The notes beneath the pieces were generated by a model. That model was not told where the DNA came from, made no database searches, and saw nothing but the letters and a program-made list of their open reading frames with translations. DNA of 64,000 nucleotides from Escherichia coli (GTDB lineage Bacteria > Pseudomonadota > Gammaproteobacteria > Enterobacterales > Enterobacteriaceae), in assembly GCF_003018235.1 (NCBI RefSeq), contig NZ_CP027437.1. One strand, written 5' to 3'. Made by a program: the position numbers and the translations under genes. Numbering within the stretch: position 1 is the stretch's first letter; each line of letters starts with the position of its first letter. Shown here in pieces: positions 1 through 21,726 of this stretch.

Positions 1-878
1 CCACCGGGTCATGTACATACGACTGCGTGTTCAGCCCGCCGCTCAGTTTCAGCGGATCCTGGCTTAAATACTGCCCCGTTCCGGCATCGTAGTAGCGGTG
101 TAAATTATACCACAGCCCGCTCTCCTCATCCTGCCACTGGCCCATGAAGCCCGCATCACAGCTTTCACGCTCACTGTCCGGCGAGTCGTTTGCTGCCAGC
201 CCCCACAGGCTGCGGTGTTTCGTCCACACCTTCCGCCCGTTTGCGCTGTACATCTCCTGCGGTACACCGTCCGGGCCGGTCACTATCGGGTAAAAATGGC
301 TCCGGTCATCATTCGCCGCCCGACGTTCCTTCGCCAGCAGTTCAAATCCGCCACGGTAGTGCCACTGCTCCCGCAGCGCCGGGCTGCCGTCTGCATACCG
401 CTTCTCGCTCGCCGACAGCGCCATGCCCTGCCACTGGTAGCGCACTTCACTGATGGCCTGTTGATGTCGTTTCCACGTCGCCCAGATAACGCAGCGTTTG
501 GCAGTTCTCCGGCCAAAGGCGTCGTAGCTGTACTGCCATACCTCACCGTCTGGTGTCTTTATCTCGCGCAGACGGTCAAAATCGTCCCAGCGGTAGCGCC
601 ACTCCTGTGGGCGAAAGCCGCGTTTTTGTTCTGTGCGCTTTGTCACCCTGCCGCAGGCGTCGTATTCGTAGCGGCTGTCGCCCGCCTGAGTCACACATTC
701 ACGGCTGTACTGGTGCTGCGACAGAATGCCGTTTATCCGGCTTTCCGCTATCTGCTCGTTTACCGTATAGCGATAGCGTTCTTCCTGCGCCGGGCCGTCG
801 GCGTCCAGCCGCAGTACACTGGTTATCTGGTCGCGGGCATCCTACTGGTAGCGCGTTTCCCGCTCCGTACGCGTTTAT
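1..878 (-). pseudogene. Orphan rhs core 3' fragment. It is 5'-truncated and has no start codon. It leaves the window at the DPVGW core-end motif.
   Basis: nt 1-878 are a near-identical direct repeat of nt 1703-2583 inside the main rhs gene. They read in the same YD-repeat frame on the minus strand. An in-frame TAG sits at 842-844 where the main copy has TAC. No RBS or ATG is present. Confidence 0.8.
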
Positions 879-910
879 TAGAAATCAAAAGATACCGATA
901 AAGATTCCCT

Positions 911-1267
911 TCATTTTTTTTCAAGCAACTCCTCATAAAGCCACATAACTAACCATTTACTATTTCTTGAATGTTCTAACATATAATGTCCAGACAAATA
1001 TTTAACAAATTCGCCATCATGAAGAGAAATATTTTTATTCATACTGTCAGAAATTATATTCAGAGTCCCTGACTGTACAAAAATATATCCCGTCATCATT
1101 GTTGTAGGTAAAGACAGCGCAGTTTTGTGAATTTTACTAACAATTCTTGAATTATTTACATTTAAACCAACTGTTAATCTAACATTATCTTCAGTGAGAG
1201 GGATGTCAAAATAATCTGACCACTTATAGATATGAAAGTCACTTAAATTTAGAAAAAACTCTCTCAT
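911..1267 (-). CDS. Putative Rhs immunity protein (RhsI), 118 aa
   Basis: AT-rich ORF beginning at an ATG (1265-1267) 19 nt downstream of the rhs stop. The tool's 157-aa version overlaps the rhs 3' end, so I trimmed it to MREFF. Position and composition are typical of rhs immunity genes. No family was recognised. Confidence 0.6.
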   Translation of the reverse strand: MREFFLNLSDFHIYKWSDYFDIPLTEDNVRLTVGLNVNNSRIVSKIHKTALSLPTTMMTGYIFVQSGTLNIISDSMNKNISLHDGEFVKYLSGHYMLEHSRNSKWLVMWLYEELLEKK

Positions 1268-1286
1268 ATTATTCTCATATAAAAGC

Positions 1287-4200
1287 TTAAGGAAAAATAA
1301 CCCCGTATTCTTCAAACGCAGCTCTAGCCGCTGCTTCAGATGCAGCGTTCTGAGTTCCAGTATTTCCGAAATGATAATGACCACTGTGAGGGGCTATATC
1401 AGTACCGAATCGTCCATTCACAACAGTAGCCTCTCCCGCCGCAAGAACTGGTTTTCCATTTGCAATTGCAGCATGAGAAATTTCTATCCCATCTTGCATT
1501 TTTGGTGCAGTTAATAGAGTGCCATCCTCAAGAAGGACATACTTTATATCGCCAGCTTCATCAGCCATATCTGCAAAACGTGGGTCTGATGGTTTCATCG
1601 GTTCAACACCGGCCTCTCTCATTGCAGCCAATTCCTCATCTAAATGTTCCGGTAATTGATTTTTAAACGGGCACCCAATAAAACCCCACGGATCACACCA
1701 GCCCACCGGGTCATGCACATACGACTGCGTGTTCATCCCGCCGCTCAGTTTCAGCGGGTCCTGGCTTAAATACTGCCCCGTTCCGGCATCGTAGTAGCGG
1801 TGTAAATTATACCACAGCCCGCTCTCCTCATCCCGCCACTGGCCCATGAAGCCCGCATCACAGCTTTCACGCTCACTGTCCGGCGAGTCGTTTGCTGCCG
1901 GAAGTCCCCACAGGCTGCGGTGTTTCGTCCACACCTTCTGGCCGTTCGCGCTGTACATCTCCTGTGGTGCGCCGTCCGGGCCGGTCACTATCGGGTAAAA
2001 ATGGCTCCGGTCATCATTCGCCGCCCGGCTTTCCTTTGCCAGCAGTTCAAACCCGTCACGGTAATGCCACTGTTCCCGTAGCGCCGGGCTGCCGTCTGCG
2101 TAGCACTTCTCACTGATGGAAAGCGCCATGCCCTGCCACTGGTAGCGCATTTCACTGATGGCGTGGCCTTGCTGCTTCCATGCAGCACGGATAACGCAGC
2201 GTTTTGCGGTTCTCCGGCCAAAGGCGTCGTAGCTGTACTGCCATACCTCACCGTCTGGTGTCTTTATCTCGCGCAGACGGTCAAAATCGTCCCAGCGGTA
2301 GCGCCACTCCTGTGGGCGAAAGCCGCGTTTTTGTTCTGTGCGCTTTGTCACCCTGCCGCAGGCGTCGTATTCGTAGCGGCTGTCGCCCGCCTGAGTCACA
2401 CATTCACGGCTGTACTGGTGCTGCGACAGAATGCCGTTTATCCGGCTTTCCGCTATCTGCTCGTTTACCGTATAGCGGTAGCGTTCTTCCTGCGCCGGGC
2501 CACCGGCGTCCAGCCGCAGTACGCTGGTTATCTGGTCGCGGGCATCGTACTGGTAGCGCGTTTCCCGCTCCGTGCGCGTTTTCGACCACACTTCATGCCC
2601 GGTCAGGCGGCCCGATTTATCCCACGCGTAGCGGTGTTCGCCCAGCGGTCGCCACGACGCCACGCTCTGGTGACCGCCAGCCAGCCGCTCTGCGCCCTGT
2701 TTTTGCCATGCCGTACGCCCGCAGGCGTCATATCCCTGCTCCTGCATATACACCGCATGGTTCAGCGGCGTCTGTGCCAGCCAGCTTTCCTCATTCTCCG
2801 GGCGGTAACGTCTGCTTTTTTCCAGCCCGGCGGGGGAATGACCGAAGTCCATCCGGTGGCCGTTGCTGCGGTAGCCCATGAGAATGCCCGAAGCATCGTA
2901 TTCTCTCTGTGTTTCCCCGTCCGGCGTTGTGGTGCCCGCCAGCCGTCCGGCTTCGTCGTAACGGTACTCCGTGCGCTGGCCATCCTGCTCTTCCGCCACC
3001 AGGCGATGACGTTCGTCCCACTCCAGTTTTACCTCGCTGGTCAGCGTGTAACCTGCTTCACTGGCATCACTGCGCTCATACACCTGCGCGCTCACCATCC
3101 GGTCATAATGGTCGTACTGATAACAGAGTTGCTGATGCTCGCCGCTGATGGTCGTCACCCGGCCATAGCCATCCCGCGCATAGCGCCATACGCTACCGTC
3201 CGGGCGGTGTTTTTCTGCCAGTCGGCCCTGTTCATCACGGATATAGACGGTTCTGCGTCCGGACCAGTCATCCTCCCCGGCCATCTGGCCCGCTGCATCA
3301 TAGTGCAGCCGCCACTGCTGGTTGCCGCTGCGCGTAAGCTGCGTCAGCCTTGCGGCACCGTCGTAGTTGCAGAGTATCCGCTGCCCGCCCGCGTCTTCCA
3401 CTTCCCGCAGCAGGTCAAATGCCCCGTGGCGGTAGCGCGTGGCCTGCCCCATGGCCCCGGTGTGGAGGGCGATTTTGCCTTCACCGTCATAGCGGAAGGT
3501 TTCCACGCCGCCATCGGCCCGGATAACCGCACTCAGTTTCTCATGCGGGTTATCAGCACCGGGGCGGTACTGCCAGTTCATGCTGCGCCCTTCCGCATCC
3601 ACCAGCCCCGTCAGCCGCAGCCAGCGGTCTTCCGTGTAATGGGTCGTGCGGCCTTCAGCATCCGTATGGGAAAGCAGGCCACCGTGGGCGCTGTAGCCCC
3701 ACTGTTCGTGGCTGCCGTCCGGGTATGTCACTTCCTTCAGCAGACCGTCTTCGGTATGACGGTACTGCCATTTTTGCCCGTTCACTTCCCGCCGGATAAG
3801 GTTCCCTTCGGCGTTATAGCTATAAGCTGCCGTGGTGTGATGGTCACGGTAGGCCGTTACCTGGCCGAACTCATCCCGCTGCCATTCACGCTTGCGCCCG
3901 TTCTCGTCCGTTTCGCTCAGGATACGCCCGGCGTAGTCGCGTTTTATCTGTGTGATACGCCCGCCCGGCTGGCGGATACACAGCGGCTGGTCGTATTCGT
4001 TACGCTCCCATTCAGTGATACGCCCCAGCGGGTCACGCTGTTTTTTCAGCAGCCAGGATTCATCGAACCACAGCGTGGTGGTGGCTCCGGTGGCGTCGGT
4101 ATAATCGGTTCTGCGCTCATCAGGGAAGTAGCGGAAGGTGTCGTTATACAGGCCTTCCTGTGTGCCTGTGGCAGTCACCCGGCCTTCATCGTCATAGCGC

Positions 4201-5813
4201 AGGTGGAAGTGCGTCGGGCCATTGTCGCGCCAGGAACTCAGCCAGCCCTGTTCGGTATAGGTATAGTGCAATGCACCATTAAAGCGGGTCTGTACATCAC
4301 GCAGCCGCTGCTCATCGCCGTGGCTGATATAGTCGTAACGCACCAGCTCGCTGCCGTCTGACTCGTCGGTCACACGGAATATCTGCCCCTGCGGGCCACA
4401 CCTCACCCGCAGACTCAGGCCGCTACTGTGGGTTACGTTTGTCAGGTGGCCGATGGCGTTATAGGTGAAGCGAATTTCGTTGCGGTTGCGGTCTTTTATT
4501 ACTGTTAGCCGCAGACGACGTGCGCCGGGGGAGATGGGCGTAAAGATATAACCCAGTTGTGAGTATTCGTCGAAAATAATAGCCCGCTCACGGTTTCCCA
4601 GGAGGCGATAGTGCGGGACAAGCAGGTTACGGCTACTGTATGGTGCCTGCTCCGTGGAGTAGGCCGGACATAGCCCCTCAGCATCAAAGTAGGTGACGTT
4701 TTTCCCGTTGCTATCGAACTCCAGAAACTGCGACCAGTTACACAACCAGCGACTGCCCAGCAAACCACTAACCGGATGTCGGCCTGTATAAGCACGTTTC
4801 AGCGTCAGCGGTAAAATATGCGAATAGTTGAAATCAGTTCGGTAATCCAGATATTCACCCGTTCCGGTATCCACCGGATCGCTGAACCCCTGACTGATAC
4901 GCTCATTGGCGGCTCTGTTTAACTGCTTTGCTCCCCATAGAGCTGTTAACACCTCCAGACTTGATACAACAGATTGTTCCAGTACCGTCATATCTGCATT
5001 AATCGGCCCATACTGTCCGGTTGTCTTATCAGCCGTGATGGTTTTACATCCTTCCTGAATAACTGCCGAGCAGGTAATTTTATGGCCCTTACGCGCCAGC
5101 GGCAGGCTGTTGACGGAAATAATTTTGCTCCCTTCCACTATCTGCGGAGGAGGACTGCCCGGATCCTTACTACATTCAACCGGATCAGTGACGCGAGCTA
5201 CCGCTTTTCCTTCAAAAAAAACATTAGGTGAGCCTTCTACAATCTGCCCGGTTTCAGATGCCCAGCGGGAACCAATTACCATCGCTGCACCACCGACAAA
5301 TCCACCAGCTAATCCCCCGGCCCCGGCAGCAACGGTGGCAGCAAGCACACCCAATGCGGCGCCCCCTGTAGCGACAACCAGAGCCCCCACTGCAATCCCT
5401 ACGATAAGTCCACCGATTAACCCACCAATAGCACCCAGAAAGGAATTGTTATGAACAATGTGATGACCCACACACGCCGGTATATCTGTTGGGCCGGAAA
5501 CAGCGTGATCTTTACCCCAGGTATCCATGAACCAGTCACCTGCTTTGGTGCCCAGCCATCCCCCCAGCATCCCGCCAGCCAGTCCGGCAATCAAAGGGCC
5601 TCCAAATCCTGCAACAGCTTTGGCTATTCCGGCTGCACAGGTATTTGCTGCGGCGGCTGCCAGTCCCACCTTTGCCGTTGCTCCCACCATGCTGACAGCC
5701 ATTATTCCAGTACTGGCAATATGTCCTGTGGTAGCAATACTCTCCACTGTTTCGGCATTACTGTCCCGTTGGTCCAGCTCCGCTAACTTCTCCTGCGCGC
5801 TTTTTTCCGTCAT
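1287..5813 (-). CDS. rhs: Rhs-family T6SS effector, 1508 aa. Layout: N-terminal hydrophobic Gly/Ala segments, a split PAAR domain, the YD-repeat shell, then a variable C-terminal toxin.
   Basis: Many YD repeats (YDxxGR-type). PAAR-like motifs GKAVARVTD and LPLARKGH. Core-end motif YVHDPVGWCDPWG, followed by a roughly 130-aa divergent tail. SD GGAAGGA lies upstream of the ATG at 5813. Sits directly downstream of a DUF1795/Eag gene. Confidence 0.92.
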   Translation of the reverse strand: MTEKSAQEKLAELDQRDSNAETVESIATTGHIASTGIMAVSMVGATAKVGLAAAAANTCAAGIAKAVAGFGGPLIAGLAGGMLGGWLGTKAGDWFMDTWGKDHAVSGPTDIPACVGHHIVHNNSFLGAIGGLIGGLIVGIAVGALVVATGGAALGVLAATVAAGAGGLAGGFVGGAAMVIGSRWASETGQIVEGSPNVFFEGKAVARVTDPVECSKDPGSPPPQIVEGSKIISVNSLPLARKGHKITCSAVIQEGCKTITADKTTGQYGPINADMTVLEQSVVSSLEVLTALWGAKQLNRAANERISQGFSDPVDTGTGEYLDYRTDFNYSHILPLTLKRAYTGRHPVSGLLGSRWLCNWSQFLEFDSNGKNVTYFDAEGLCPAYSTEQAPYSSRNLLVPHYRLLGNRERAIIFDEYSQLGYIFTPISPGARRLRLTVIKDRNRNEIRFTYNAIGHLTNVTHSSGLSLRVRCGPQGQIFRVTDESDGSELVRYDYISHGDEQRLRDVQTRFNGALHYTYTEQGWLSSWRDNGPTHFHLRYDDEGRVTATGTQEGLYNDTFRYFPDERRTDYTDATGATTTLWFDESWLLKKQRDPLGRITEWERNEYDQPLCIRQPGGRITQIKRDYAGRILSETDENGRKREWQRDEFGQVTAYRDHHTTAAYSYNAEGNLIRREVNGQKWQYRHTEDGLLKEVTYPDGSHEQWGYSAHGGLLSHTDAEGRTTHYTEDRWLRLTGLVDAEGRSMNWQYRPGADNPHEKLSAVIRADGGVETFRYDGEGKIALHTGAMGQATRYRHGAFDLLREVEDAGGQRILCNYDGAARLTQLTRSGNQQWRLHYDAAGQMAGEDDWSGRRTVYIRDEQGRLAEKHRPDGSVWRYARDGYGRVTTISGEHQQLCYQYDHYDRMVSAQVYERSDASEAGYTLTSEVKLEWDERHRLVAEEQDGQRTEYRYDEAGRLAGTTTPDGETQREYDASGILMGYRSNGHRMDFGHSPAGLEKSRRYRPENEESWLAQTPLNHAVYMQEQGYDACGRTAWQKQGAERLAGGHQSVASWRPLGEHRYAWDKSGRLTGHEVWSKTRTERETRYQYDARDQITSVLRLDAGGPAQEERYRYTVNEQIAESRINGILSQHQYSRECVTQAGDSRYEYDACGRVTKRTEQKRGFRPQEWRYRWDDFDRLREIKTPDGEVWQYSYDAFGRRTAKRCVIRAAWKQQGHAISEMRYQWQGMALSISEKCYADGSPALREQWHYRDGFELLAKESRAANDDRSHFYPIVTGPDGAPQEMYSANGQKVWTKHRSLWGLPAANDSPDSERESCDAGFMGQWRDEESGLWYNLHRYYDAGTGQYLSQDPLKLSGGMNTQSYVHDPVGWCDPWGFIGCPFKNQLPEHLDEELAAMREAGVEPMKPSDPRFADMADEAGDIKYVLLEDGTLLTAPKMQDGIEISHAAIANGKPVLAAGEATVVNGRFGTDIAPHSGHYHFGNTGTQNAASEAAARAAFEEYGVIFP

Positions 5814-5843: not shown

Positions 5844-6275
5844 TTATTTATCCTGCGGCATTCCAAAACAAAAATTCAATAATGCTCCCCGCATCGCTTT
5901 ACGATCCTCCTCTGCCAGCGCCTGTGTTGAGGAATAGGTCAGCGTCAGTACTTGTCGCTCGTTCAGAATTACCAGCAGCAACTGCTGTATCATCACCCCC
6001 TTGTTATCCCAGCTAAATTCCCAGTATTCCGCCGGGCGCTCCTGTACATGACAGCGTTCTTCGACGGTGAACACCATTTTCGACAGTTCGGTACGGAATT
6101 TCTTTTTCTGCACCGCCAGATAGTCATCAAACTGCGCACCATCCGGCAATATTTCACGGGTAACAACAACATTAGCCCCGGCAATCGCACTTAATACCGG
6201 TGTCAGAATATTCATACTGCTGTCCTGCCAGTTTCCTGGCAGGGTGAAATGTCCTTCATTAATTAGATATTGCAT
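5844..6275 (-). CDS. eagR: Eag-family (DUF1795) T6SS effector chaperone, 143 aa
   Basis: N-terminus MQYLINEGHFTLPGNWQDSSMNIL is typical of DUF1795. Located between vgrG and a PAAR-Rhs gene with TM segments, as for EagR/SciW in SPI-6. Confidence 0.8.
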   Translation of the reverse strand: MQYLINEGHFTLPGNWQDSSMNILTPVLSAIAGANVVVTREILPDGAQFDDYLAVQKKKFRTELSKMVFTVEERCHVQERPAEYWEFSWDNKGVMIQQLLLVILNERQVLTLTYSSTQALAEEDRKAMRGALLNFCFGMPQDK

Positions 6276-6480: not shown

Positions 6481-6930
6481 CTAATGGTTTCTCAAAAAAA
6501 TCTTTGCGTAATTAGGATTATTTAACTCTAAGTTCACCACATTAGATTTAAAATTATAAAAATCCGCATCTCTATCATCCTCTGTAACCTTTGAATCAAC
6601 CGTCGACCACACATTCGTATAAAAACTACACTCATGCTTTCCTGGCGTAATATGGTAATCTCTGGCAATTTGTACATAGTCCCCCACCTTCATTTCTCCG
6701 GGAGAGATTTTGTAATATTCCCCTTGTCCAAGGTTGTACATTACACCTGAATAACGAATCTTCTTGCCATCACATTCAACACTCAATTGATCGGAGCTCG
6801 GATATTTACCTTGAGATATGTACCTGACATCTATATATAATGGAATTTCACCATTATTTTTAACACGTACAGCAACATAAACGTCATCTTCTTTGGGTAT
6901 AACATCCACAATAACCATGTAACATGGCAT
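6481..6930 (-). CDS. Hypothetical beta-rich protein. Candidate immunity or inhibitor for the VgrG C-terminal metallopeptidase (149 aa from the ATG at 6930).
   Basis: AT-rich ORF starting 17 nt after the vgrG stop. No signal peptide or lipobox is visible. The start is ambiguous (ATG at 6930 or 6918; the tool's upstream start overlaps vgrG). Confidence 0.45.
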   Translation of the reverse strand: MPCYMVIVDVIPKEDDVYVAVRVKNNGEIPLYIDVRYISQGKYPSSDQLSVECDGKKIRYSGVMYNLGQGEYYKISPGEMKVGDYVQIARDYHITPGKHECSFYTNVWSTVDSKVTEDDRDADFYNFKSNVVNLELNNPNYAKIFLRNH

Positions 6931-6946
6931 CCATAAATTAAGCCTT

Positions 6947-9784
6947 TTATTCAAAATAACGTTCAAAGTTATAAGCACTTTGTAATGAGGCCCGCTTACC
7001 CTTTTTAGCTAGATCTATACCACCACTTCTTAAACCCTCATCAAAACTTCCGAGCACATCATAAAAATGTGACATTTCATGAATCAAAGTTATGACTTGT
7101 GAATCACGACCGTCCAGGGGATCGTCAATAAATTTATTTCCAAGATAAATGGTATGGGTATAATCTCCATCATTAACTCTTCCATGAACATTAACATCCA
7201 TAAATTCAAAATTTTGGTACTTAATCCCCTCATTAATTTCAATTTCTTTTTTTACAGCGTTTAAAATTTTATTCCTGGCTGCCTCATCATCAACACCGAA
7301 TATATTTCCAAAACGCTCTTTATCGTTATCATTCCAACGAATCAACTCATCTCTTGCTGATTTTAATTTTTTACGCTGCGCTTCAAGAACAAGTTTCATA
7401 TCATTTTCACTGATCCTTTTCTCCTCTATCATTTCATAAACAGGATTTCCATAATTATCTGTAAGAGGTTTTCCATTATATCCAATTATAGCTACTCCAT
7501 TACCCGGCCCTGATGTAGAAAAATCTCTAATTGTATTAATTTTATATTTACCATTTGCGTCACTACCGCCAGGATTCAGTGCCAAGTGAGTAGGTCCATC
7601 AAGGATGATAGTGCCGTCTGAATTCATCACGAGAGTGCTGCTTCCCACAGTCAACGTAATGTTCGTTGCCGCAGTCAAATGAATGGCACCAGATTTTGAT
7701 GTGATGGTAATATCCCCTTCGACAGTCTCCGTGCAGGTTCCCGTTTCTACCGTCACTTCGCGTTTACCCGTTTTCACCGTCAGAGACTGGTCACCTTCTG
7801 TCACAGTAATATCCCGGTTGCCTTTGATGGTTTCGGTGTGCTTACCCTCAACAAATTCTGTGCGATCGATTTTTACCGTAGATGTTTCGTTATGAATGAT
7901 GGTTTTCGTCCGATCTGCCTTTACCGTGTGTGTTTCGTTATTTTTCACGACGGTATTCAGATCTTTCTCCGCAAGAAACCTCACTTCTTCCGCACCTGTT
8001 TTATCGTCAAAGCGCAGCATGTTTCCGTTGGTCGGCCCGCCATACAGCGAGTGGCTGAATATCCCGCTCTGCGACGCCATGCCCGGCAATCCCCACGGCG
8101 GCATGGTGTCCTGGTTATAGGTGCGCCCTACAATGATCGGTAAATCCGGGTCGCCGTTTTTGAAATCCACCAGCACTTCCTGGCCGATGCGCGGGATCTG
8201 GATCATCCCGAATCCTTTCCCCGCCCACGGGTAGCTGACGCGGATCCAGCAGGAGCTGTTTTCGTCATTCTTTCCGTAACGGTCCCAGCCAAACTGGACC
8301 TTCACCCGGCCATATTTATCCGTCCAGATTTCCTGCCCCGCAGGGCCGGTGACGATGGCGCTCTGCGGGCCTTTGGTGTGGGGTTTGCTCAGGGTTCGCT
8401 GTGGGCGGTAAACTTCGCTGGTGGGATGCAGTTCAAACGTGGTGACATAGGTAAAATGCTGCTCCTGACCGCTGTGCTGCGCATTATCCCGTAAAAACAG
8501 CGTGGTCTGTACCAGTAGGTATTCCTGGTTGACCTCTGCCGTTGGATGATTCATCAGCGTAAAGGTGTAACCCGTCATGAGGGTGCGGATATGACCTGCC
8601 CCATGTGCCCGGCTGCCGGGGCTGCGCTGCGCTTCCATACGAATGCGCGTCAGCATCTCGCCTTCGCCCGTAGTGAAGTAATCACCAGGCCATTCATAAT
8701 GCTCGTATTCAGCATGACCGGTATCACGCGGACTAGCCACGGTACTTTTAAGCAGCGAACGAGGCTTCATAAAATCAAAATCGTCCATCACCCACTTTCC
8801 AGTACGTAGCCTCTCACTGGCCGTAATGGTGTGGATAAATTCCTTGTCCAGTTTCAGACCTTCCTGGTGCCACTCCACCAGTGGCGAGTCAGGGCACGCT
8901 TTATGACCATTGATGGCATCCGCCAGCACCAGCGTATGGCTGTTCTCGCTGTGCTCAAACCACCAGTAAATTCCCCACTCCTGCATCAGGCGCTGGATGA
9001 AATCAAAATCCGTTTCACCGTACTGTACCTGCCAGGCACGAGGTGGATAATTTTCCACCAGCCGTTTTTCCACCGGAAAGGAATATTCATCCAGTACTTC
9101 ATCGAGAATATCCACCACGGTTTTATTCTGGAACGCCTTGTAGTCGCTGGTATGGGTCAGCAGCTTCAGCCATGGCTCAATGCGTAATTCATACGTTACC
9201 GAACGGCCCTCATGGCCGACCACCCGCGCTGCCGTCACCAGCCCGCTGATATACCGTTTTTCGCCACCGTCCAGTTCAATACTGACGCACAGGTCTTTGC
9301 CCACCATGGGCTGAAGCGGCAGGTTGGCAGCGGGAGAAACGTAACCCAGGTTCAGGATGTCCGGCGTTTTAAGCTGTACTGTGTAGGAAAACAGATTCCC
9401 AAGTCCTTCCGAACCATTCATGCCTGCAAACAAAAGCAACTGCGGCGGCACCGCGCTACCACTTACTGTGACGTTATGCGCCCCCGGACCACCGGCTGCA
9501 AGCGACGACGCCGCATCCTGAACTGTACCAGCCATATCCGAGATCCCTACTGCAGCAGCGGCAGCCTGCGCAGCAGTTACTGCAGCTTTAACCAGACCTG
9601 ACGGTTCCGGCAACGCACCAAACAGGTCCGCCGCGGCCTGTTCTGCCATCTCCTCGGCGGCACCAGATACATCGGTTACGGCTGAACTGGCGCTTACAGC
9701 ACTACTTTCTCCGGCTATCGGTGGCGTGGAGATAGCTGGCCCACCGTTACTGCCAGATTTATTACTCGTAGATACAAAACTCAT
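6947..9784 (-). CDS. vgrG: Evolved VgrG spike protein, 945 aa. It has an Ala/Ser-rich N-terminal extension and a C-terminal aspzincin-like (M35-like) zinc metallopeptidase domain.
   Basis: gp27/gp5-like core ([12 protein letters not shown]..., beta-helix repeats [25 protein letters not shown]...). The last roughly 207 aa are AT-rich and contain TLIHEMSHF (HExxH at nt 7067-7081). An Asp lies 9 residues after the second His (GSFDEGL), which is the aspzincin spacing. SD AAGGAA lies before the ATG at 9784. Confidence 0.9.
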
Positions 9785-16057: not shown

Positions 16058-16501
16058 TCAAAATTCTCTGGATAGAATAATATAGCCATTGAATCTTACG
16101 GAACACTCATTTTCATTAATAAGGCCGGATGCAATAACAACATCTTTCCCCCTGTCATTGTTAATATAGGTATATTTTGCCACAATAGACTTAGCATGAT
16201 TTTCATAGTAGCTATCAAAATACGATTTTTCATCTAACATTGCCTTCTTATTTCTGGCTTTGTCCTTCTCATAATCAATCTTAGCCAGAGACTCTGCATA
16301 AAACTTAGACACAGGAGAAACATCAAGAACTTCTACCCTTGTTTTATCTCTTAAAATAGTAGAAGAATTTATATTCAAATCACTTTTCATTGCATCAAAT
16401 AACGACAACTCTATTGAGGCTCCAACCGTAGCGCAACCATCATTTTGTGCATATGAAATTGCAGGTATGCCAGCTAACAGGCAGATTATTACCTTGAACA
16501 T
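16058..16501 (-). CDS. tldi1: Tldi1-like periplasmic immunity protein, 147 aa from the ATG at 16501
   Basis: Signal peptide MFKVIICLLAGIPAISYA. Its start lies 1 nt after the Tlde1 stop. AT-rich. Confidence 0.65.
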   Translation of the reverse strand: MFKVIICLLAGIPAISYAQNDGCATVGASIELSLFDAMKSDLNINSSTILRDKTRVEVLDVSPVSKFYAESLAKIDYEKDKARNKKAMLDEKSYFDSYYENHAKSIVAKYTYINNDRGKDVVIASGLINENECSVRFNGYIILSREF

Positions 16502-16502
16502 A

Positions 16503-16871
16503 TTAGTCCTCAACCACTAATATTTTATCAGTACTGGCAGCAATAACCTTGCGATAAGGTAAATCCAGAATTATACAGCCATCAGAGGCTTCTCCTGGAT
16601 GGGCTGAACTCTCTCCGTGTATCATGAAACCGTCACGCCCGCACATTTGATTTTCGGGGTAAGGCGTGAGCCTCATCGTCCATGCTCTTGTTCTTGCATG
16701 AAAAAATGCAGGTCCAATTGTATATGAACCTCTTGGCAATGGTCCCTTATCTCTTACACACTCATTAACAGAGTCATCTTTAAAACCCGGTCTGCCAGAA
16801 TATCTGGCATTGAACTGATAGCTACCATTTAAATAAAATGAACGTGCATTAATTTTGTATACCCAAGGCAT
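16503..16871 (-). CDS. tlde1: Tlde1-family (DUF2778, L,D-transpeptidase-like) T6SS peptidoglycan effector, 122 aa
   Basis: Catalytic-type motif HGESSAHPGEASDGCIIL (His ... S-x-G-C). Same size and same position between tssL and tssM as Tlde1 in Salmonella SPI-6. Confidence 0.75.
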   Translation of the reverse strand: MPWVYKINARSFYLNGSYQFNARYSGRPGFKDDSVNECVRDKGPLPRGSYTIGPAFFHARTRAWTMRLTPYPENQMCGRDGFMIHGESSAHPGEASDGCIILDLPYRKVIAASTDKILVVED

Positions 16872-16962
16872 TACACAATCTCCTTTTTGTTAAAAAATAA
16901 TAGTCAGATCAGAACACCATATTTTATTGTTAGTTTTCTGACCTAACCATAGTCATATTAAT

Positions 16963-18279
16963 TCACTCCACCACCAGAATTTCCACCCGACGGTTCTGCG
17001 CCCGTCCGGTTTTAGTGCGGTTATCGGCCACCGGTACGGTATCTCCTTTCCCGACAACCCGGATCCGGCTGGCCGGAATACCACCGGACGTCAGCAGTGA
17101 AGCCACTTCCGCCGCCCGTTTTTCCGACAATACCTGGTTGGACGGGAATTCAGCGGAGTGGATCGGCTGGCTGTCCGTGTGGCCGGTCACCGTCACCGCG
17201 CCCCCCACACGCGCAATCTCACGCGCGGCCTTGTCAATCACCGGGCGCAGCGCATCATTCACGGTTTTCTGCCCCGGTATAAACATCGTATCGCCACGAA
17301 AGATTACACGGCTGTGATGGTCATCTTCCTCCACCGTCAGCAGGCCACGGGCGATTTCGTTCGCCAGCAGGATTTTCAGCCGCAGTTTATGCACTGGAAC
17401 GGGTGGCGGCGGTAGATTTTTACCAATGGCGTCGATACGCTGTTGTACGGTTTCGGTGGCGAGGTTCATCCGGTGGCTGTAAAGGCCAAACAGCGTCAGC
17501 ATCACCAGCAGGGCGATTCCGGCGCTCAGCCAGACCGGCACCCGGCGCATCCGCCGCATTCGCCCACTGACGGCACCGGCAAAACCCGGCGAGAGCGTCG
17601 GCGTGATCGGATCGCGACGCTGGACCAGTTGAGTCAGCAGTTGCTGGCGGATATCGTCCAGTTGTTTACGCCCGTCAGGCCGTACACTGTAGCGGCCTTC
17701 AAAACCCAGTCCCAGAATGTGGTAAATGATTTCCAGTACATCGCTGTGCTCCTGGAAGCTGGCGGCCAGACGCCCGATTATCTGAAACAGCTTGATGCCG
17801 CCTTCACTTTCGCCATGAAAAGTCACCAGCAGGCTCTTCCCGGCCCAGACACCGCGTCGCCCCCAGACGGTGTTGTTGGCAGCTTCATCCAGCGCCGTGC
17901 ACACGCAGTAACGTACCGCCAGCACATGTTCGCGGCGCAGGTTTGCCTGGTCGCACAGCGTCTGATACCGGCGGACTTCACGCTCCAGTAGGGCGCGATA
18001 ATGTTCGACAAAACCAGGGGAAAGTTCACGGGGCATTTGCGCCAGCGCGCATAACAGAGGGCTGGCCGCCGCCAGAAGAGGATTCACAGCAGCAGTGATC
18101 TCAGCCAAGCGGAGCTTCAAATCTGGCCCGTCTTCAACCACCACCTTTATATCTTCCCTGCGAAGGCTGTCCTGGACGAGCGTATCGTAACCGTCATTAT
18201 CAGGCGACCTTGTTCCCCTTATTGAAGGCTGTAATTGCAGGGTATTCACCGCAGGTTGCGTCAGAATATCGTCGGTCAT
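16963..18279 (-). CDS. tssL: TssL (DotU) fused to a C-terminal OmpA-like peptidoglycan-binding domain, 438 aa
   Basis: DotU-like N-terminal region, one TM segment (VWLSAGIALLVMLTLFGLY), and an OmpA_C motif TGHTDSQP...NRRVEILV. Confidence 0.9.
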   Translation of the reverse strand: MTDDILTQPAVNTLQLQPSIRGTRSPDNDGYDTLVQDSLRREDIKVVVEDGPDLKLRLAEITAAVNPLLAAASPLLCALAQMPRELSPGFVEHYRALLEREVRRYQTLCDQANLRREHVLAVRYCVCTALDEAANNTVWGRRGVWAGKSLLVTFHGESEGGIKLFQIIGRLAASFQEHSDVLEIIYHILGLGFEGRYSVRPDGRKQLDDIRQQLLTQLVQRRDPITPTLSPGFAGAVSGRMRRMRRVPVWLSAGIALLVMLTLFGLYSHRMNLATETVQQRIDAIGKNLPPPPVPVHKLRLKILLANEIARGLLTVEEDDHHSRVIFRGDTMFIPGQKTVNDALRPVIDKAAREIARVGGAVTVTGHTDSQPIHSAEFPSNQVLSEKRAAEVASLLTSGGIPASRIRVVGKGDTVPVADNRTKTGRAQNRRVEILVVE

Positions 18280-19619
18280 TTATCGCGAACTCCCCACAGC
18301 TCCAGCTCCAGCCCTGGAAACTCTCCGGCGGTATGCATTGCCATGCCACCATAGCGGGCGATATGTTCCCACAACACGCCGTCGCGGCGGATGTCGTAAT
18401 AGATGTAACCGGACTGGAACGGGATCTGACGCGGTGGCACTGGCAGCATCTGTAGAACAAGACCAGGAAGGTGCGAGCGAATCAGTTCCGGCAGGCGTTC
18501 TGACGGCCCTATTTTGGTCTGAGCCGAAAAATGTTGTAGTAAGGTGTCGGCGGACATCTGTGCCTTCACCGCCAATACTAACGAGCTGAAATCTGACAGT
18601 TCGGTAGGTTCAACCACCGCATTGAGAATACCGTAAGTTCCCTCTTCCAGAGGGATTCGCTGCGCCCCACGTATTAGCACAGCATTCAGCAGATACTGAA
18701 CCTCGTCCACCACCGATTTCAGCCCGGCATAGGGCGTCAGGTGCTTATATTCTTTATATTCTTCCGGACGACGTGTTTGCGGACGCACGTAGGTAGAGAG
18801 TTCTCCGGCCAGTGCGCAGAGGTTACGATAGAGTACTTCAGGCGATAGCGGCGTTTTCGACATATGGATCAATAAGGGGCCGAAACGATTAAGAACTTGC
18901 AGAAGCAGGTAATCCGACACTTCCGCCGCTTCATGACCGTGTTTGTCGCTCCCCGTCAATCGTTCCGCCAGCGAATCTGCACGCATTTTTATCAGATCGT
19001 TAATCCACGACAGCCAGGTACATATCAGCGTACTGGCCTGGTAGTTCGCCACTGGCGGGATCAACTCTTTGTCTATATCGACCCGACCATCGGGATGCAG
19101 CGCCGTGATGCGCGTCAGCGGCAGGCCGATCCACGCGTCTGTCACCGCCTTTTCCGGTAACAGTCGCAAGCGCAGGTGGCTAAGTTGCAGCAGTTGCGCG
19201 CCTCGCCCCAGCGAATTGGCATCACGGATTTCACTTTCATGTACCGAAAAACGTGCCAGTGATTCAGGGTTATTGTCGAAACTGGTTTCTTCACTGTTCG
19301 GCGTACGTATTGGCACAGCCAGATAAATCAACTGGTTAAGATGTTCTGGAAGGATGGTCAGAGGCGGCGGGAGTGGTGTATGACCCGGCGCATTAAAAGG
19401 TGTACCGTCAGCAAATACCCCGGAAGCCTTCGTAAGTACCAGTTTTCCGATGTTCAGCGCCTCACTACCAATACCATACTCATTGAAGCCCCAGTAAAAA
19501 GGTGAAAGAGGCAAACTGCGATAATGAATGACATGTTCCAGATAGCGTTCCTGCTGCTGAAACATCTGTGGCAACAAAAATTGTCCTTCACTCCAGACCA
19601 CCCGGTTATTCCAACTCAT
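18276..19619 (-). CDS. tssK: TssK baseplate protein, 447 aa
   Basis: N-terminus MSWNNRVVWSEGQFLLPQMFQQQERY is characteristic of TssK. ATGA overlap with tssL. Confidence 0.92.
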   Translation of the reverse strand: MSWNNRVVWSEGQFLLPQMFQQQERYLEHVIHYRSLPLSPFYWGFNEYGIGSEALNIGKLVLTKASGVFADGTPFNAPGHTPLPPPLTILPEHLNQLIYLAVPIRTPNSEETSFDNNPESLARFSVHESEIRDANSLGRGAQLLQLSHLRLRLLPEKAVTDAWIGLPLTRITALHPDGRVDIDKELIPPVANYQASTLICTWLSWINDLIKMRADSLAERLTGSDKHGHEAAEVSDYLLLQVLNRFGPLLIHMSKTPLSPEVLYRNLCALAGELSTYVRPQTRRPEEYKEYKHLTPYAGLKSVVDEVQYLLNAVLIRGAQRIPLEEGTYGILNAVVEPTELSDFSSLVLAVKAQMSADTLLQHFSAQTKIGPSERLPELIRSHLPGLVLQMLPVPPRQIPFQSGYIYYDIRRDGVLWEHIARYGGMAMHTAGEFPGLELELWGVRDK

Positions 19620-19622
19620 AAT

Positions 19623-20195
19623 TTACTCATCCCGTTCTTTAATCACTATGGCGCTTTGCTCTATGCCAGCATCCAGTTCGACTTTTTTCTTTGGCATAAA
19701 GCGGCTGTACCAACTTTTTTCCGGTGGATCAGGAATTTTATATGTAGCCCGCCAGACCGATTTTCCCAGATTGCGGTATCCGGCGAGGATCCCCAGCGTG
19801 GTAGTTTCCTTATTGAGGGCGCGGCGTAATTTTTTCTCCTCGCCCGGACGCAGGATAAAGCTGTCGCGGTGGAGTAAATCATCGGCAAGAACAGCCTTGT
19901 CATTGTCCTGAAGGGACCACCAGTCCGCCGCCGTGAAAGCTGCATCAATTTTCAGTTCATAAACGCGTATCTCTATGGGCGCGGCTTTTTTCTGATTGTC
20001 AGGATTCATCTTATCGGAAGCCTTAATCACCAGATCGAGTCTTTGTGACATCAGGTCCGGCACGTCGTCGCTGTCAATGCTGCACCCGGAAAGCAGGAAG
20101 ACAAAAGACAAAGCTACCGCACATAACCACCCACCGGGGTTACGCCATTTATTCACTTTAATTTCCTTTAAAATCAAATAATAAAAACCGGCCAA
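19623..20195 (-). CDS. tssJ: TssJ outer-membrane lipoprotein
   Basis: Lipobox LLSGC. Conserved position upstream of tssK. The true start is more likely the GTG at 20156, preceded by SD AAGGAA. Confidence 0.88.
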   Translation of the reverse strand: MAGFYYLILKEIKVNKWRNPGGWLCAVALSFVFLLSGCSIDSDDVPDLMSQRLDLVIKASDKMNPDNQKKAAPIEIRVYELKIDAAFTAADWWSLQDNDKAVLADDLLHRDSFILRPGEEKKLRRALNKETTTLGILAGYRNLGKSVWRATYKIPDPPEKSWYSRFMPKKKVELDAGIEQSAIVIKERDE

Positions 20196-20223
20196 GCTAT
20201 ATACCTGGCCGGGAAAATGTTGC

Positions 20224-20709
20224 TTAAATTTCTTTGTTAGCTTTGAAATCGTAACCTGCCGTGATAGTGCCGCCGCTGCCGCCCTGCTGGTTCTGCACCA
20301 CGTATTCCTGCTTCACGGTGCTGAAAGAGAGTTCGACTGACTCACGAGAAGCTATTTCTCCCCCCTGACTCCCGCTGGGCGAAACCATTGCTACGATCAA
20401 ATCAGTAAAACTGTATTTGAGGTATTCCAGTGGGTTGCCGCCTGCTTTGCGCATGGTCAGCACGGCTTTCGGAATGTGTTTGCCGGAGGCGCAGTATTTG
20501 AACAGGTTCGGGCTGGCGCGATCGATATAGTGTTCAAATGAAAGATTAGTTACGGATACCTTGCCGGATCCCAGACCGCTACCCGCGTGCATGGTGGACT
20601 CCTGGTGGATATTCCAGCGCCAGCTCAACACCTCAATTTCATTTTTATGTTTGTCATCCATTGACTCGCCGTCAATGCCGTCAATTTTCAGAAAAATATC
20701 ATAAGACAT
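20224..20709 (-). CDS. hcp: Hcp tube protein, 161 aa
   Basis: MSYDIFLKIDGIDGES... is a canonical Hcp N-terminus, and the size fits. Confidence 0.95.
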   Translation of the reverse strand: MSYDIFLKIDGIDGESMDDKHKNEIEVLSWRWNIHQESTMHAGSGLGSGKVSVTNLSFEHYIDRASPNLFKYCASGKHIPKAVLTMRKAGGNPLEYLKYSFTDLIVAMVSPSGSQGGEIASRESVELSFSTVKQEYVVQNQQGGSGGTITAGYDFKANKEI

Positions 20710-20820
20710 ATTTCATACCTTTTATTTAAATTAATTTTGGTTTATCCGCTTACAAATAAACCATTACTTTACAACACTCTTCCACATATGGAATCGGCAG
20801 AACAAAGGATTGAATATATT

Positions 20821-21192
20821 TCATTTCTTAACACTCCTGGAAATCAACTCATCCAATTCATTTCCATGAATGAAATCTATACATTTCATAGTACTGAAGT
20901 CTGATGCTATAGAACCATCATATTTTAATGATGCATATTTTCTCGCTATCGCATCTATTTCACGAAAAATTTCTACAGGTTGCTGACCATATTCAAGATA
21001 AGCACTAGCTGTAGCTCTGGCATCATCCTGAACGACATCATTTTTATACACCAATGACAAACAATGACTCAAAGCCCAATTGCGTAAGAGCTCTGACTGA
21101 GAATATTTTTCAGTCAATGCTTCCTGAGCATAAGATAATTGACATATCTGTAGCCCACAGAGGCCCCAAAATATTAATTTCAGCCATTTCAT
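20821..21192 (-). CDS. tai4: Tai4 immunity protein, 123 aa from the ATG at 21192
   Basis: Signal peptide MKWLKLIFWGLCGLQICQLSYA. ATGA overlap with the tae4 stop. Confidence 0.75.
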   Translation of the reverse strand: MKWLKLIFWGLCGLQICQLSYAQEALTEKYSQSELLRNWALSHCLSLVYKNDVVQDDARATASAYLEYGQQPVEIFREIDAIARKYASLKYDGSIASDFSTMKCIDFIHGNELDELISRSVKK

Positions 21193-21674
21193 GGTAGTAC
21201 CCACAGGATTCCGACTTCAGGAACAAATGTTCCATTATCTGGATCATTTAGTAGATGGCATTGATCTGAACAAACGCTACCATTCCATAATGTTACATGT
21301 CCCCGAGCATTGCTCCAGCCATGGCCTTTTACAACAATGATGCCTTTTTTACCTGTAAAGTCACCAGGAGTTGGATTATTAATGACAAGATCTGGCTTCC
21401 CCATAATCTGGGTCAGATGTTCAATCATATCATTCACACGATAAATATAAAATTTCTTATCAGAACCACTAACCGTTGCATAGGGAGAACTACGGGATAT
21501 CGGAAATCCCGTAGCATTCAAAACATAACTCATACGAATTGGACAAGCATTTTCAAAATAGCCACCTGAAATATTTTGCCCAACATTTCCGCCAATTATA
21601 AGACCGACATCAGCAACGGGAAAATTCACTTTTCCAAATGCCGACCATGCCTCATTAAATGAAGGTCTACCCAT
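21189..21674 (-). CDS. tae4: Tae4 family T6SS peptidoglycan amidase effector, 161 aa
   Basis: Closely resembles the remembered Salmonella/Enterobacter Tae4 sequence (RPSFNEAW...NACPIRMSYVLN...GHGWSNARGHVTLWNG...CHLLNDPDNG). The catalytic Cys (ACPIRM) and His (GHVTLW) contexts are present. Confidence 0.88.
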   Translation of the reverse strand: MGRPSFNEAWSAFGKVNFPVADVGLIIGGNVGQNISGGYFENACPIRMSYVLNATGFPISRSSPYATVSGSDKKFYIYRVNDMIEHLTQIMGKPDLVINNPTPGDFTGKKGIIVVKGHGWSNARGHVTLWNGSVCSDQCHLLNDPDNGTFVPEVGILWVLP

Positions 21675-21726
21675 TTTCTTTATCCTCTAAAAAATCTGCA
21701 TCACAAGCTTTATGAAATATAATAAA

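Follow-up and report, generated by a model that had tools for sequence, protein, structure and literature searches.

An uncatalogued, cross-phylum toxin domain at the C-terminus of a PAAR-Rhs effector in an Escherichia coli type VI secretion island

Introduction

Toxins delivered by Rhs proteins, by contact-dependent inhibition (CDI) and by type VII secretion systems (T7SS) have repeatedly yielded new enzymatic activities. Here we describe the C-terminal tail of an Rhs protein, and the small open reading frame (ORF) that follows it, in a 64,000-nucleotide stretch of E. coli contig NZ_CP027437.1 (assembly GCF_003018235.1), which we call the window. The closest described system is that of the Eag-chaperoned PAAR-Rhs effectors of type VI secretion systems (T6SS), the prePAAR class, which has transmembrane segments at the N-terminus and is known from RhsA of Pseudomonas protegens, from Salmonella and from E. 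coli T6SS-1 (PMC7773334). The window shares with that class a VgrG, a DcrB/Eag chaperone, a PAAR-Rhs protein with a glycine-rich hydrophobic N-terminus, a core ending in DPxG...DPxG, a variable toxin with a small immunity gene downstream, and an adjoining orphan rhs fragment. It differs in that its toxin falls in no named family and its possible prePAAR motif is divergent. The Rhs effector, Eag chaperone, VgrG, immunity gene and orphan module are a textbook system; what is new is the toxin domain, which represents a large family.

Results and Discussion

The Rhs effector and its tail

The rhs gene (1287-5813, minus strand; WP_250375826.1) was identified from its ORF and Pfam matches; annotation was taken from the Prokaryotic Genome Annotation Pipeline (PGAP) record of E. 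coli MEI003 (NZ_CP071263.1), which is identical to the window. Its product of 1508 amino acids (aa) consists, in order, of glycine-rich hydrophobic N-terminal segments, a PAAR motif (PF05488, residues 186-252, E 3.6e-16), DUF6531 (E 2.9e-14), RHS repeats (RHS_repeat, E 7.2e-61 in 11 stretches), the core and the toxin tail, and toward the C-terminus it reads ...YVHDPVGWCDPWGFIGCPFKNQLPEHLDEE...EEYGVIFP. The NCBIfam model Rhs_assc_core (TIGR03696, E 4.8e-19) stops at residue 1377, profile position 75 of 76, which is the G of DPWG in the core end DPVGWCDPWG. Therefore, the tail is residues 1378-1508, or 131 aa (1290-1682, minus strand). The core-end motif YVHDPVGWCDPWG (1683-1721, minus strand), located by reading the sequence and by the end of TIGR03696, is the presumed autoproteolytic boundary. 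A sequence-only reading of this DNA had put the D codon of the core end at 1710-1712 and a tail of roughly 130 aa behind it, and both placements were right: the GAC of HDPVG is read at 1712-1710. The GC content stands at 0.58-0.65 (about 0.60) across the rhs core, drops to 0.40-0.50 over the tail and reaches 0.30 at 901-1200; the last value agrees with the same reading's description of the downstream 118-aa ORF as markedly AT-rich.

Four sequence features by which a PAAR-Rhs polymorphic toxin of the T6SS is recognized were found: a PAAR domain at the N-terminus, an RHS/YD shell with a core ending in DPxG...DPxG, a C-terminal toxin that is variable and has a small immunity gene behind it, and a linked VgrG, Eag/DcrB chaperone and complete T6SS. 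The pair is very probably a T6SS-delivered Rhs toxin and its immunity protein. We are equally confident of the fuller description, in which a PAAR-Rhs effector of the T6SS-1 island carries a 131-residue, cross-phylum toxin domain that has no curated model, and in which the ORF at 911-1267 is the co-transcribed immunity gene. By established Rhs biology, the tail would be cut off at the DPxG...DPxG core end within the Rhs shell and fired on the VgrG/PAAR spike, and, as in prePAAR effectors, the N-terminal hydrophobic segments may help to carry the toxin into the cytoplasm of the recipient.

A toxin domain family outside the catalogs

The sequence-only reading had called the tail a member of an unrecognized family. 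In agreement with this, the tail had no Pfam or NCBIfam match at E<=1 and no match among PDB sequences, and no profile in the Pfam and NCBIfam searches assigned it to a characterized toxin family; the named toxin domains of Pfam-A and NCBIfam (Ntox*, Tox-*, deaminase, ART and others) do not include it. Sequence or profile matches to PDB entries for HrcQ2 (E 0.026) and nitrophorin-4 (E 0.063) were set aside as chance-level, and they were not echoed by structure.

A word-indexed search with the tail returned only four relatives, all metagenomic. An exhaustive HMMER profile search of 1.84 billion representatives returned 599 proteins at E<=1e-3, 324 of them at <=1e-10; the 599 are cluster representatives. 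The family ranges over Proteobacteria, Actinobacteria, Cyanobacteria and Myxobacteria, and the hosts include Streptomyces, Luteimicrobium, Mastigocoleus, Scytonema, Planktothrix and Polyangiaceae, with divergent forms in Pseudomonas. The toxin region matched no Pfam model in any of 89 full-length relatives, nor in 38 domains searched at E<=10, and it matched no NCBIfam model in further relatives. Within the text-searchable literature we found no paper that describes the family, and none that mentions its accessions or motif strings or covers it in the STox supplement. The DNA of the tail plus the small ORF was found in 1 of 5426 complete E. coli genomes.

The accepted criteria for a polymorphic-toxin domain (Zhang et al. 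2012, PMC3482391; restated in PMC12994826) are fusion of a C-terminal domain to several unrelated trafficking or processing modules and a candidate immunity gene that consistently follows, and both were observed. The domain is the extreme C-terminus in 144 of the 151 best relatives. Among the 89 full-length relatives, its N-terminal partners are PT-HINT (14), RHS (12), extracellular contractile injection system (eCIS) core (3), PT-TG, Tox-PAAR-like, WXG100-like (WXG100_2), ALF and DUF637, and the delivery or processing modules that precede it include CdiA-type ones. Because it is placed C-terminally behind such diverse delivery modules, the domain is a genuine polymorphic-toxin domain and, by its sequence relatives, the tail represents an uncatalogued toxin family. 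Planktothrix carries the domain as a cassette of 144 aa that forms an array with one for a CdiA_C toxin, downstream of an FtsK/SpoIIIE ATPase.

These architectures also bear on the idea that the domain is not itself a toxin but has an accessory or pre-toxin role, for instance as an adaptor or as a domain that binds an activator, in which case the downstream ORF would not be an immunity gene. In two relatives (P0102, P0104) the domain lies N-terminal to Ntox28 or Ntox35; a PI3/PI4-kinase-like module (DRNxGN...IDHG) is its partner in three actinobacterial proteins (P0113, P0065, P0081), and P0033 carries the domain twice in tandem. Against these cases stand the terminal position that it takes in the best relatives, with Rhs, HINT or CdiA-type processing modules immediately before it, the stand-alone cassettes that are then followed by conserved small ORFs, and the enzyme-like invariant polar residues described below. 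We consider an accessory role very improbable and keep to the reading of the domain as a toxin.

A few relatives depart from the common form. P0113 has a PP2C-like region at its N-terminus in addition to the kinase-like module. The metagenome protein P0002 joins an Rhs core (...PQEMYSANG) straight to the toxin at ...RPVLAAGE and lacks K1424 and H1447 (Rhs numbering); from its sequence, it looks like a recombination scar at a shared ANG(K/R)PV/KVW stretch that gave a truncated orphan. In a Nannocystales metagenome-assembled genome (locus L012, 3773-4399, plus strand), a distant homolog stands alone; it is about 176-208 aa long and carries a zinc ribbon at its C-terminus. E-H and PVLAAGE are retained, but the Lys is missing and STG takes the position of SGH, and the protein is perhaps a cellular relative of the fold that is not a toxin.

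Immunity genes

The putative cognate immunity gene (911-1267, minus strand; 118 aa, GC about 30%) is a coding sequence in PGAP and follows rhs. As the sequence-only reading had it, the gene begins 19 nt past the rhs stop, with its ATG at 1267 after the TAA, and lacks a signal peptide: no hydrophobic segment was seen at the N-terminus (maximum Kyte-Doolittle(15) 0.09 in the first 30 aa). The ORF had no Pfam or NCBIfam match at E<=1. Neither a promoter-like nor a terminator-like site was found at 700-1400 of the window, which includes the gap that separates rhs from the small gene. The exact sequence of the small protein is present on 279 E. coli contigs, near-identical members of its cluster are found in Pseudocitrobacter, and in locus L002 an immunity homolog (25% identity, E 1e-14) follows a toxin homolog. 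Given the 599 toxin relatives, the 279 contigs and the L002 pair, both ORFs are therefore more than chance. The position of the ORF, the co-occurrence in L002 and the co-distribution with the toxin in E. coli indicate that it is likely the cognate immunity gene.

We then compared the loci of relatives; a related-locus search with a narrower alignment gave 9 genome loci. In nearly all loci with enough sequence, an ORF on the same strand begins no more than about 25 nt past the stop codon of the toxin or overlaps with that codon. Three immunity families lie directly downstream of the toxin in 13 loci, and they are absent or unclear in L008 and L009. The three are mutually unrelated though they follow one toxin family, and most relatives have families unrelated to the ORF of the window. 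The commonest, Imm-A (177-205 aa, ending W..L..LP), was found in seven loci (L003, L005-L007, L014, L016, L017) from actinobacteria, cyanobacteria and metagenomes, and has no Pfam or NCBIfam model. Imm-B (118-141 aa) is the type of the window and is shared with L002 (E 1e-14). Imm-C (acidic, about 124 aa) accompanies the divergent toxins of Pseudomonas (GGGHIDLANGKPVIAAGE...NTSGHYEPS) in L010, L011 and L013. The ORF downstream of the toxin in L004 matched Cupin_3 at 2.5e-5, and a weak link between it and the immunity ORF of the window (BLASTP E 0.002 over 33 aa; hhalign E 0.037) suggests that Imm-B is possibly related to this Cupin_3-like protein. A family model for the toxin would rename hundreds of proteins now called 'hypothetical' or 'RHS repeat', and three unrelated families of immunity proteins that neutralize one toxin fold would be defined with it.

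Conserved residues and predicted fold

Conservation was computed over 213 family members, in Rhs numbering. On the minus strand, the conserved positions are N1385 of the NQLP motif (1659-1661; 0.92), K1424 of IKY in strand beta1 (1542-1544; 0.99), E1444-I-S-H1447 at the start of a short helix (1473-1484; E 0.96, H 1.00), the A1458-A1459-G1460-E1461 strand (1431-1442; 0.92, 0.99 and 1.00, with E 0.83 and Q 0.13 at the last position) and the S1477-G1478-H1479 loop (1377-1385; 0.99, 0.99 and 1.00). Also conserved are E1394 (0.94), F1413 (0.95), G1453 (1.00), V1456 (0.98), F1500 (0.97) and G1504 (0.95). H1476 is conserved at 0.63, position 1481 is mostly L/Q/R/M, N1484 is variable, and a TGTQNA segment is missing from 68% of the members. 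A HIT-like reading of H-Y-H-F was ruled out because H1481 is not conserved.

The AlphaFold2 model of the toxin domain, built on an 82-sequence alignment, has a predicted local distance difference test score (pLDDT) of 93.6 and a predicted template modeling score (pTM) of 0.88. In the numbering of the 137-aa query, it consists of helices 17-29 and 42-49, strands 52-57 and 62-66, a short helix 76-79, strands 85-94 and 98-103, the S-G-H loop and a last helix 115-131. The sequence-only reading had suggested a fold search with such a model, and Foldseek found nothing when the model was compared with all PDB chains (best E 1.4); therefore, the predicted fold is one with no clear solved relative. The family thus comprises about 600 sequence clusters with no name or curated model, yet with a confidently predicted fold and sharply defined invariant residues.

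The same reading had speculated that the tail, with a hairpin-like stretch ending in HSGHYH and a next helix bearing N and E residues, is compatible with a beta-beta-alpha-metal (HNH/EndoVII, GH-E-like) nuclease. As a DNase of this kind, it would bind the metal through the HSGHYH hairpin, with the N and E residues on the next helix. In the window sequence and the model, the hairpin, the three histidines within six residues and the following helix are indeed present. Both the short His-rich motif after a beta-hairpin and the Rhs C-terminal delivery recall the HNH/EndoVII-fold toxins (Tox-GHH, Tox-SHH, Tox-HNH, GH-E). The family differs from them in that it does not keep the motif as a whole: S-G-H alone is invariant, and the ligand set of a His at the end of hairpin strand 1 and Asn/His on the helix was not found, with H1476 at 0.63 and H1481, N1484 and the N/E residues of the helix not conserved. 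No profile of these toxins matched, and neither the beta-beta-alpha-Me fold nor any other nuclease fold matched the model. The DNase proposal therefore did not hold up, and we regard it as highly unlikely; overall, the sequence-only interpretation was partly supported.

A metal-independent RNase would fit the invariant residues in another way. Here, H1447 and H1479 would serve as general acid and base while K1424 and S1477 stabilize the transition state, as in enzymes of the RNase A, EndoU or colicin E5/D type, and the target would be tRNA, rRNA or mRNA in the recipient cytoplasm. Such an activity is favored by the invariant His/His/Lys plus Ser and Glu, by an immunity protein that is cytoplasmic and has no signal peptide, by the neighboring cassette in Planktothrix, a CdiA_C toxin of the tRNase type, and by the two relatives fused upstream of Ntox28 or Ntox35. 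RNases are also the commonest class among cytoplasm-acting polymorphic toxins. The metal-independent RNase toxins (colicin E5/D, EndoU, BECR-fold Ntox, CdiA_C) are alike in being small, cytoplasm-acting C-terminal domains with their own immunity. The tail differs in that neither fold nor profile comparisons linked it to barnase, EndoU, colicin E5/D or RelE, and in that the family of the window is acidic rather than basic: the median isoelectric point of its toxin domains is 5.25 and the median charge -5, and the toxin of the window has a charge of -10.8. This acidity makes for a poor fit with a nucleic-acid substrate; RNases of acidic charge do exist. We hold an RNase to be unlikely, and place it second, after the phosphoryl-group reading below. 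If the toxin were one, it would define a new nuclease fold.

Comparison with PHPT1

The reading that we put forward is that of an enzyme acting on phosphoryl groups, and it comes from a comparison with human PHPT1, the 14-kDa phosphohistidine phosphatase of the Janus/Ocnus family (PF05005; PDB 2nmm, 2hw4, 2ai6). The active site of PHPT1 consists of K21, E51-Y52-H53-A54, R78 (in GGGR) and Y93-S94-M95-A96, and is located between the beginning of helix 1 and the loop that precedes helix 2 (PMC4817053). By manual mapping, the four strongest motifs of the toxin occur in the same order and on equivalent secondary-structure elements: IK1424Y lies on strand 1, E1444-I-S-H1447-A where the short helix begins, A-A-G-E1461 on strand 3 and S1477-G-H1479 in the loop ahead of the last helix. 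In this manual map, K1424, H1447 and S1477 are colinear with K21, the catalytic H53 and S94 of PHPT1. Because of this colinearity, we propose a phosphoryl-group enzyme.

In this proposal, K1424, E1444/H1447, the strand of small residues A1458-A-G-E1461 and, ahead of the last helix, the S1477-G-H1479 loop would make up the enzyme pocket. The toxin would bind a phosphoryl group and hydrolyze or transfer it, on a substrate other than nucleic acid, such as a phosphoprotein (for example a phosphohistidine carrier), a nucleotide or a metabolite, and the immunity protein would block the pocket by direct binding. By analogy, a PHPT1-like phosphoryl-binding pocket that acts on a phosphoprotein or a small phospho-compound is possible, and we offer it tentatively.

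Other results set the two proteins apart. No sequence relationship with the PHPT1/Janus-Ocnus family was detected: the toxin did not match the PF05005 profile, and hhalign (probability <1%) and hmmsearch gave no significant signal between the toxin family and a 98-sequence alignment of vertebrate PHPT1, a profile that is narrow because only vertebrate homologs were returned. The Foldseek search of PDB chains was negative, and the toxin has E/Q1461 at the place of R78. The toxin also differs from PHPT1 in an added N-terminal helical region with the invariant N1385 and E1394 and in the added invariant H1479. The stronger claim, that the domain is a weaponized bacterial relative of the PHPT1/Janus phosphohistidine phosphatase fold, is improbable. 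If it were true, a toxin injected through T6SS, CDI, T7SS-like systems and eCIS would strip phosphoryl groups from phosphohistidine (or P-N or acyl-phosphate) intermediates. The candidate targets would be EI and HPr of the phosphotransferase system (PTS), NDK, succinyl-CoA synthetase and two-component kinases, so that sugar uptake and phosphorelay signaling would be halted. No interbacterial toxin with phosphohistidine-phosphatase action turned up in our literature searches. Were the weak resemblance to PHPT1 to hold, interbacterial warfare would gain a new class of target, namely phosphoryl-protein or phospho-metabolite chemistry.

The loss of the PHPT1 arginine also suits some other metal-dependent hydrolase (an amidase, peptidase or nucleotide hydrolase), in which H1447, H1479 and E1444 (or E1461) would bind a divalent metal and K1424, S1477 and N1385 would position the substrate. 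The family has an invariant set of two His plus a carboxylate, E/Q1461 replaces the arginine, and the acidic pocket is compatible with cation binding. Yet neither profiles nor structure revealed a metallohydrolase fold or motif (HExxH, HxD etc.), and E1461 is Q in 13% of the members. We give this mechanism little chance, and the phosphoryl-group enzyme is the one we retain as a working proposal.

The surrounding T6SS island

The window contains a complete T6SS-1 island, inserted next to a tRNA-Asp gene, with TssA-M, Hcp, Tae4/Tai4 and a Tlde1-domain effector. After these, the order is VgrG, a 165-aa ORF, the DcrB/Eag-type chaperone, Rhs, the small ORF and the orphan rhs fragment. The chaperone gene (5844-6275, minus strand; DcrB/DUF1795, Pfam DcrB 8.6e-27; 'DcrB-related protein' in PGAP) is inferred, by analogy with the system of PMC7773334, to serve the N-terminal hydrophobic region of Rhs. 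Between two glycine-rich hydrophobic segments of that region, the sequence ACVGHHIVH (residues about 112-121; window about 5450-5480, minus strand) was noticed by eye, and it could be a divergent prePAAR motif (consensus AARxxDxxxH).

The VgrG spike gene (6947-9784, minus strand; 945 aa) matches Phage_GPD (2.1e-101) and Gp5_trimer_C. It has a C-terminal extension of about 220 aa, mainly at 6950-7606, which is AT-rich, carries an HEMSH motif and resembles M35 peptidases (Aspzincin_M35, Pfam E 2.4e-6, narrowly below the cut-off; AsaP1 toxic endopeptidase, PDB 2x3a, E 1.6e-4). PGAP calls this VgrG a C-terminally truncated pseudogene though its ORF is intact, and a likely 'evolved VgrG' metallopeptidase effector has therefore been left unannotated. 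The AT-rich ORF at 6481-6978 (minus strand; 165 aa) extends across the VgrG stop and drew no match from Pfam or NCBIfam; it is a candidate immunity protein or adaptor for the peptidase extension.

The orphan rhs core fragment (about 1-880, minus strand; WP_250375827.1) lies 3' of the immunity gene and was recognized by direct repeats with the main rhs gene, 1-197 against 1703-1899 (98%) and 191-490 against 1896-2195 (86%). It leaves the window exactly at its own YVHDPV motif; a second toxin/immunity module would therefore lie just beyond the window, out of view. Beyond the window edge, the MEI003 record has more rhs fragments and an ISAs1 pseudogene. Further effector/immunity pairs lie at about 16060-21680 of the window (record 3999153-4004769), namely Tae4/Tai4 and the Tlde1-domain protein with a downstream hypothetical ORF.

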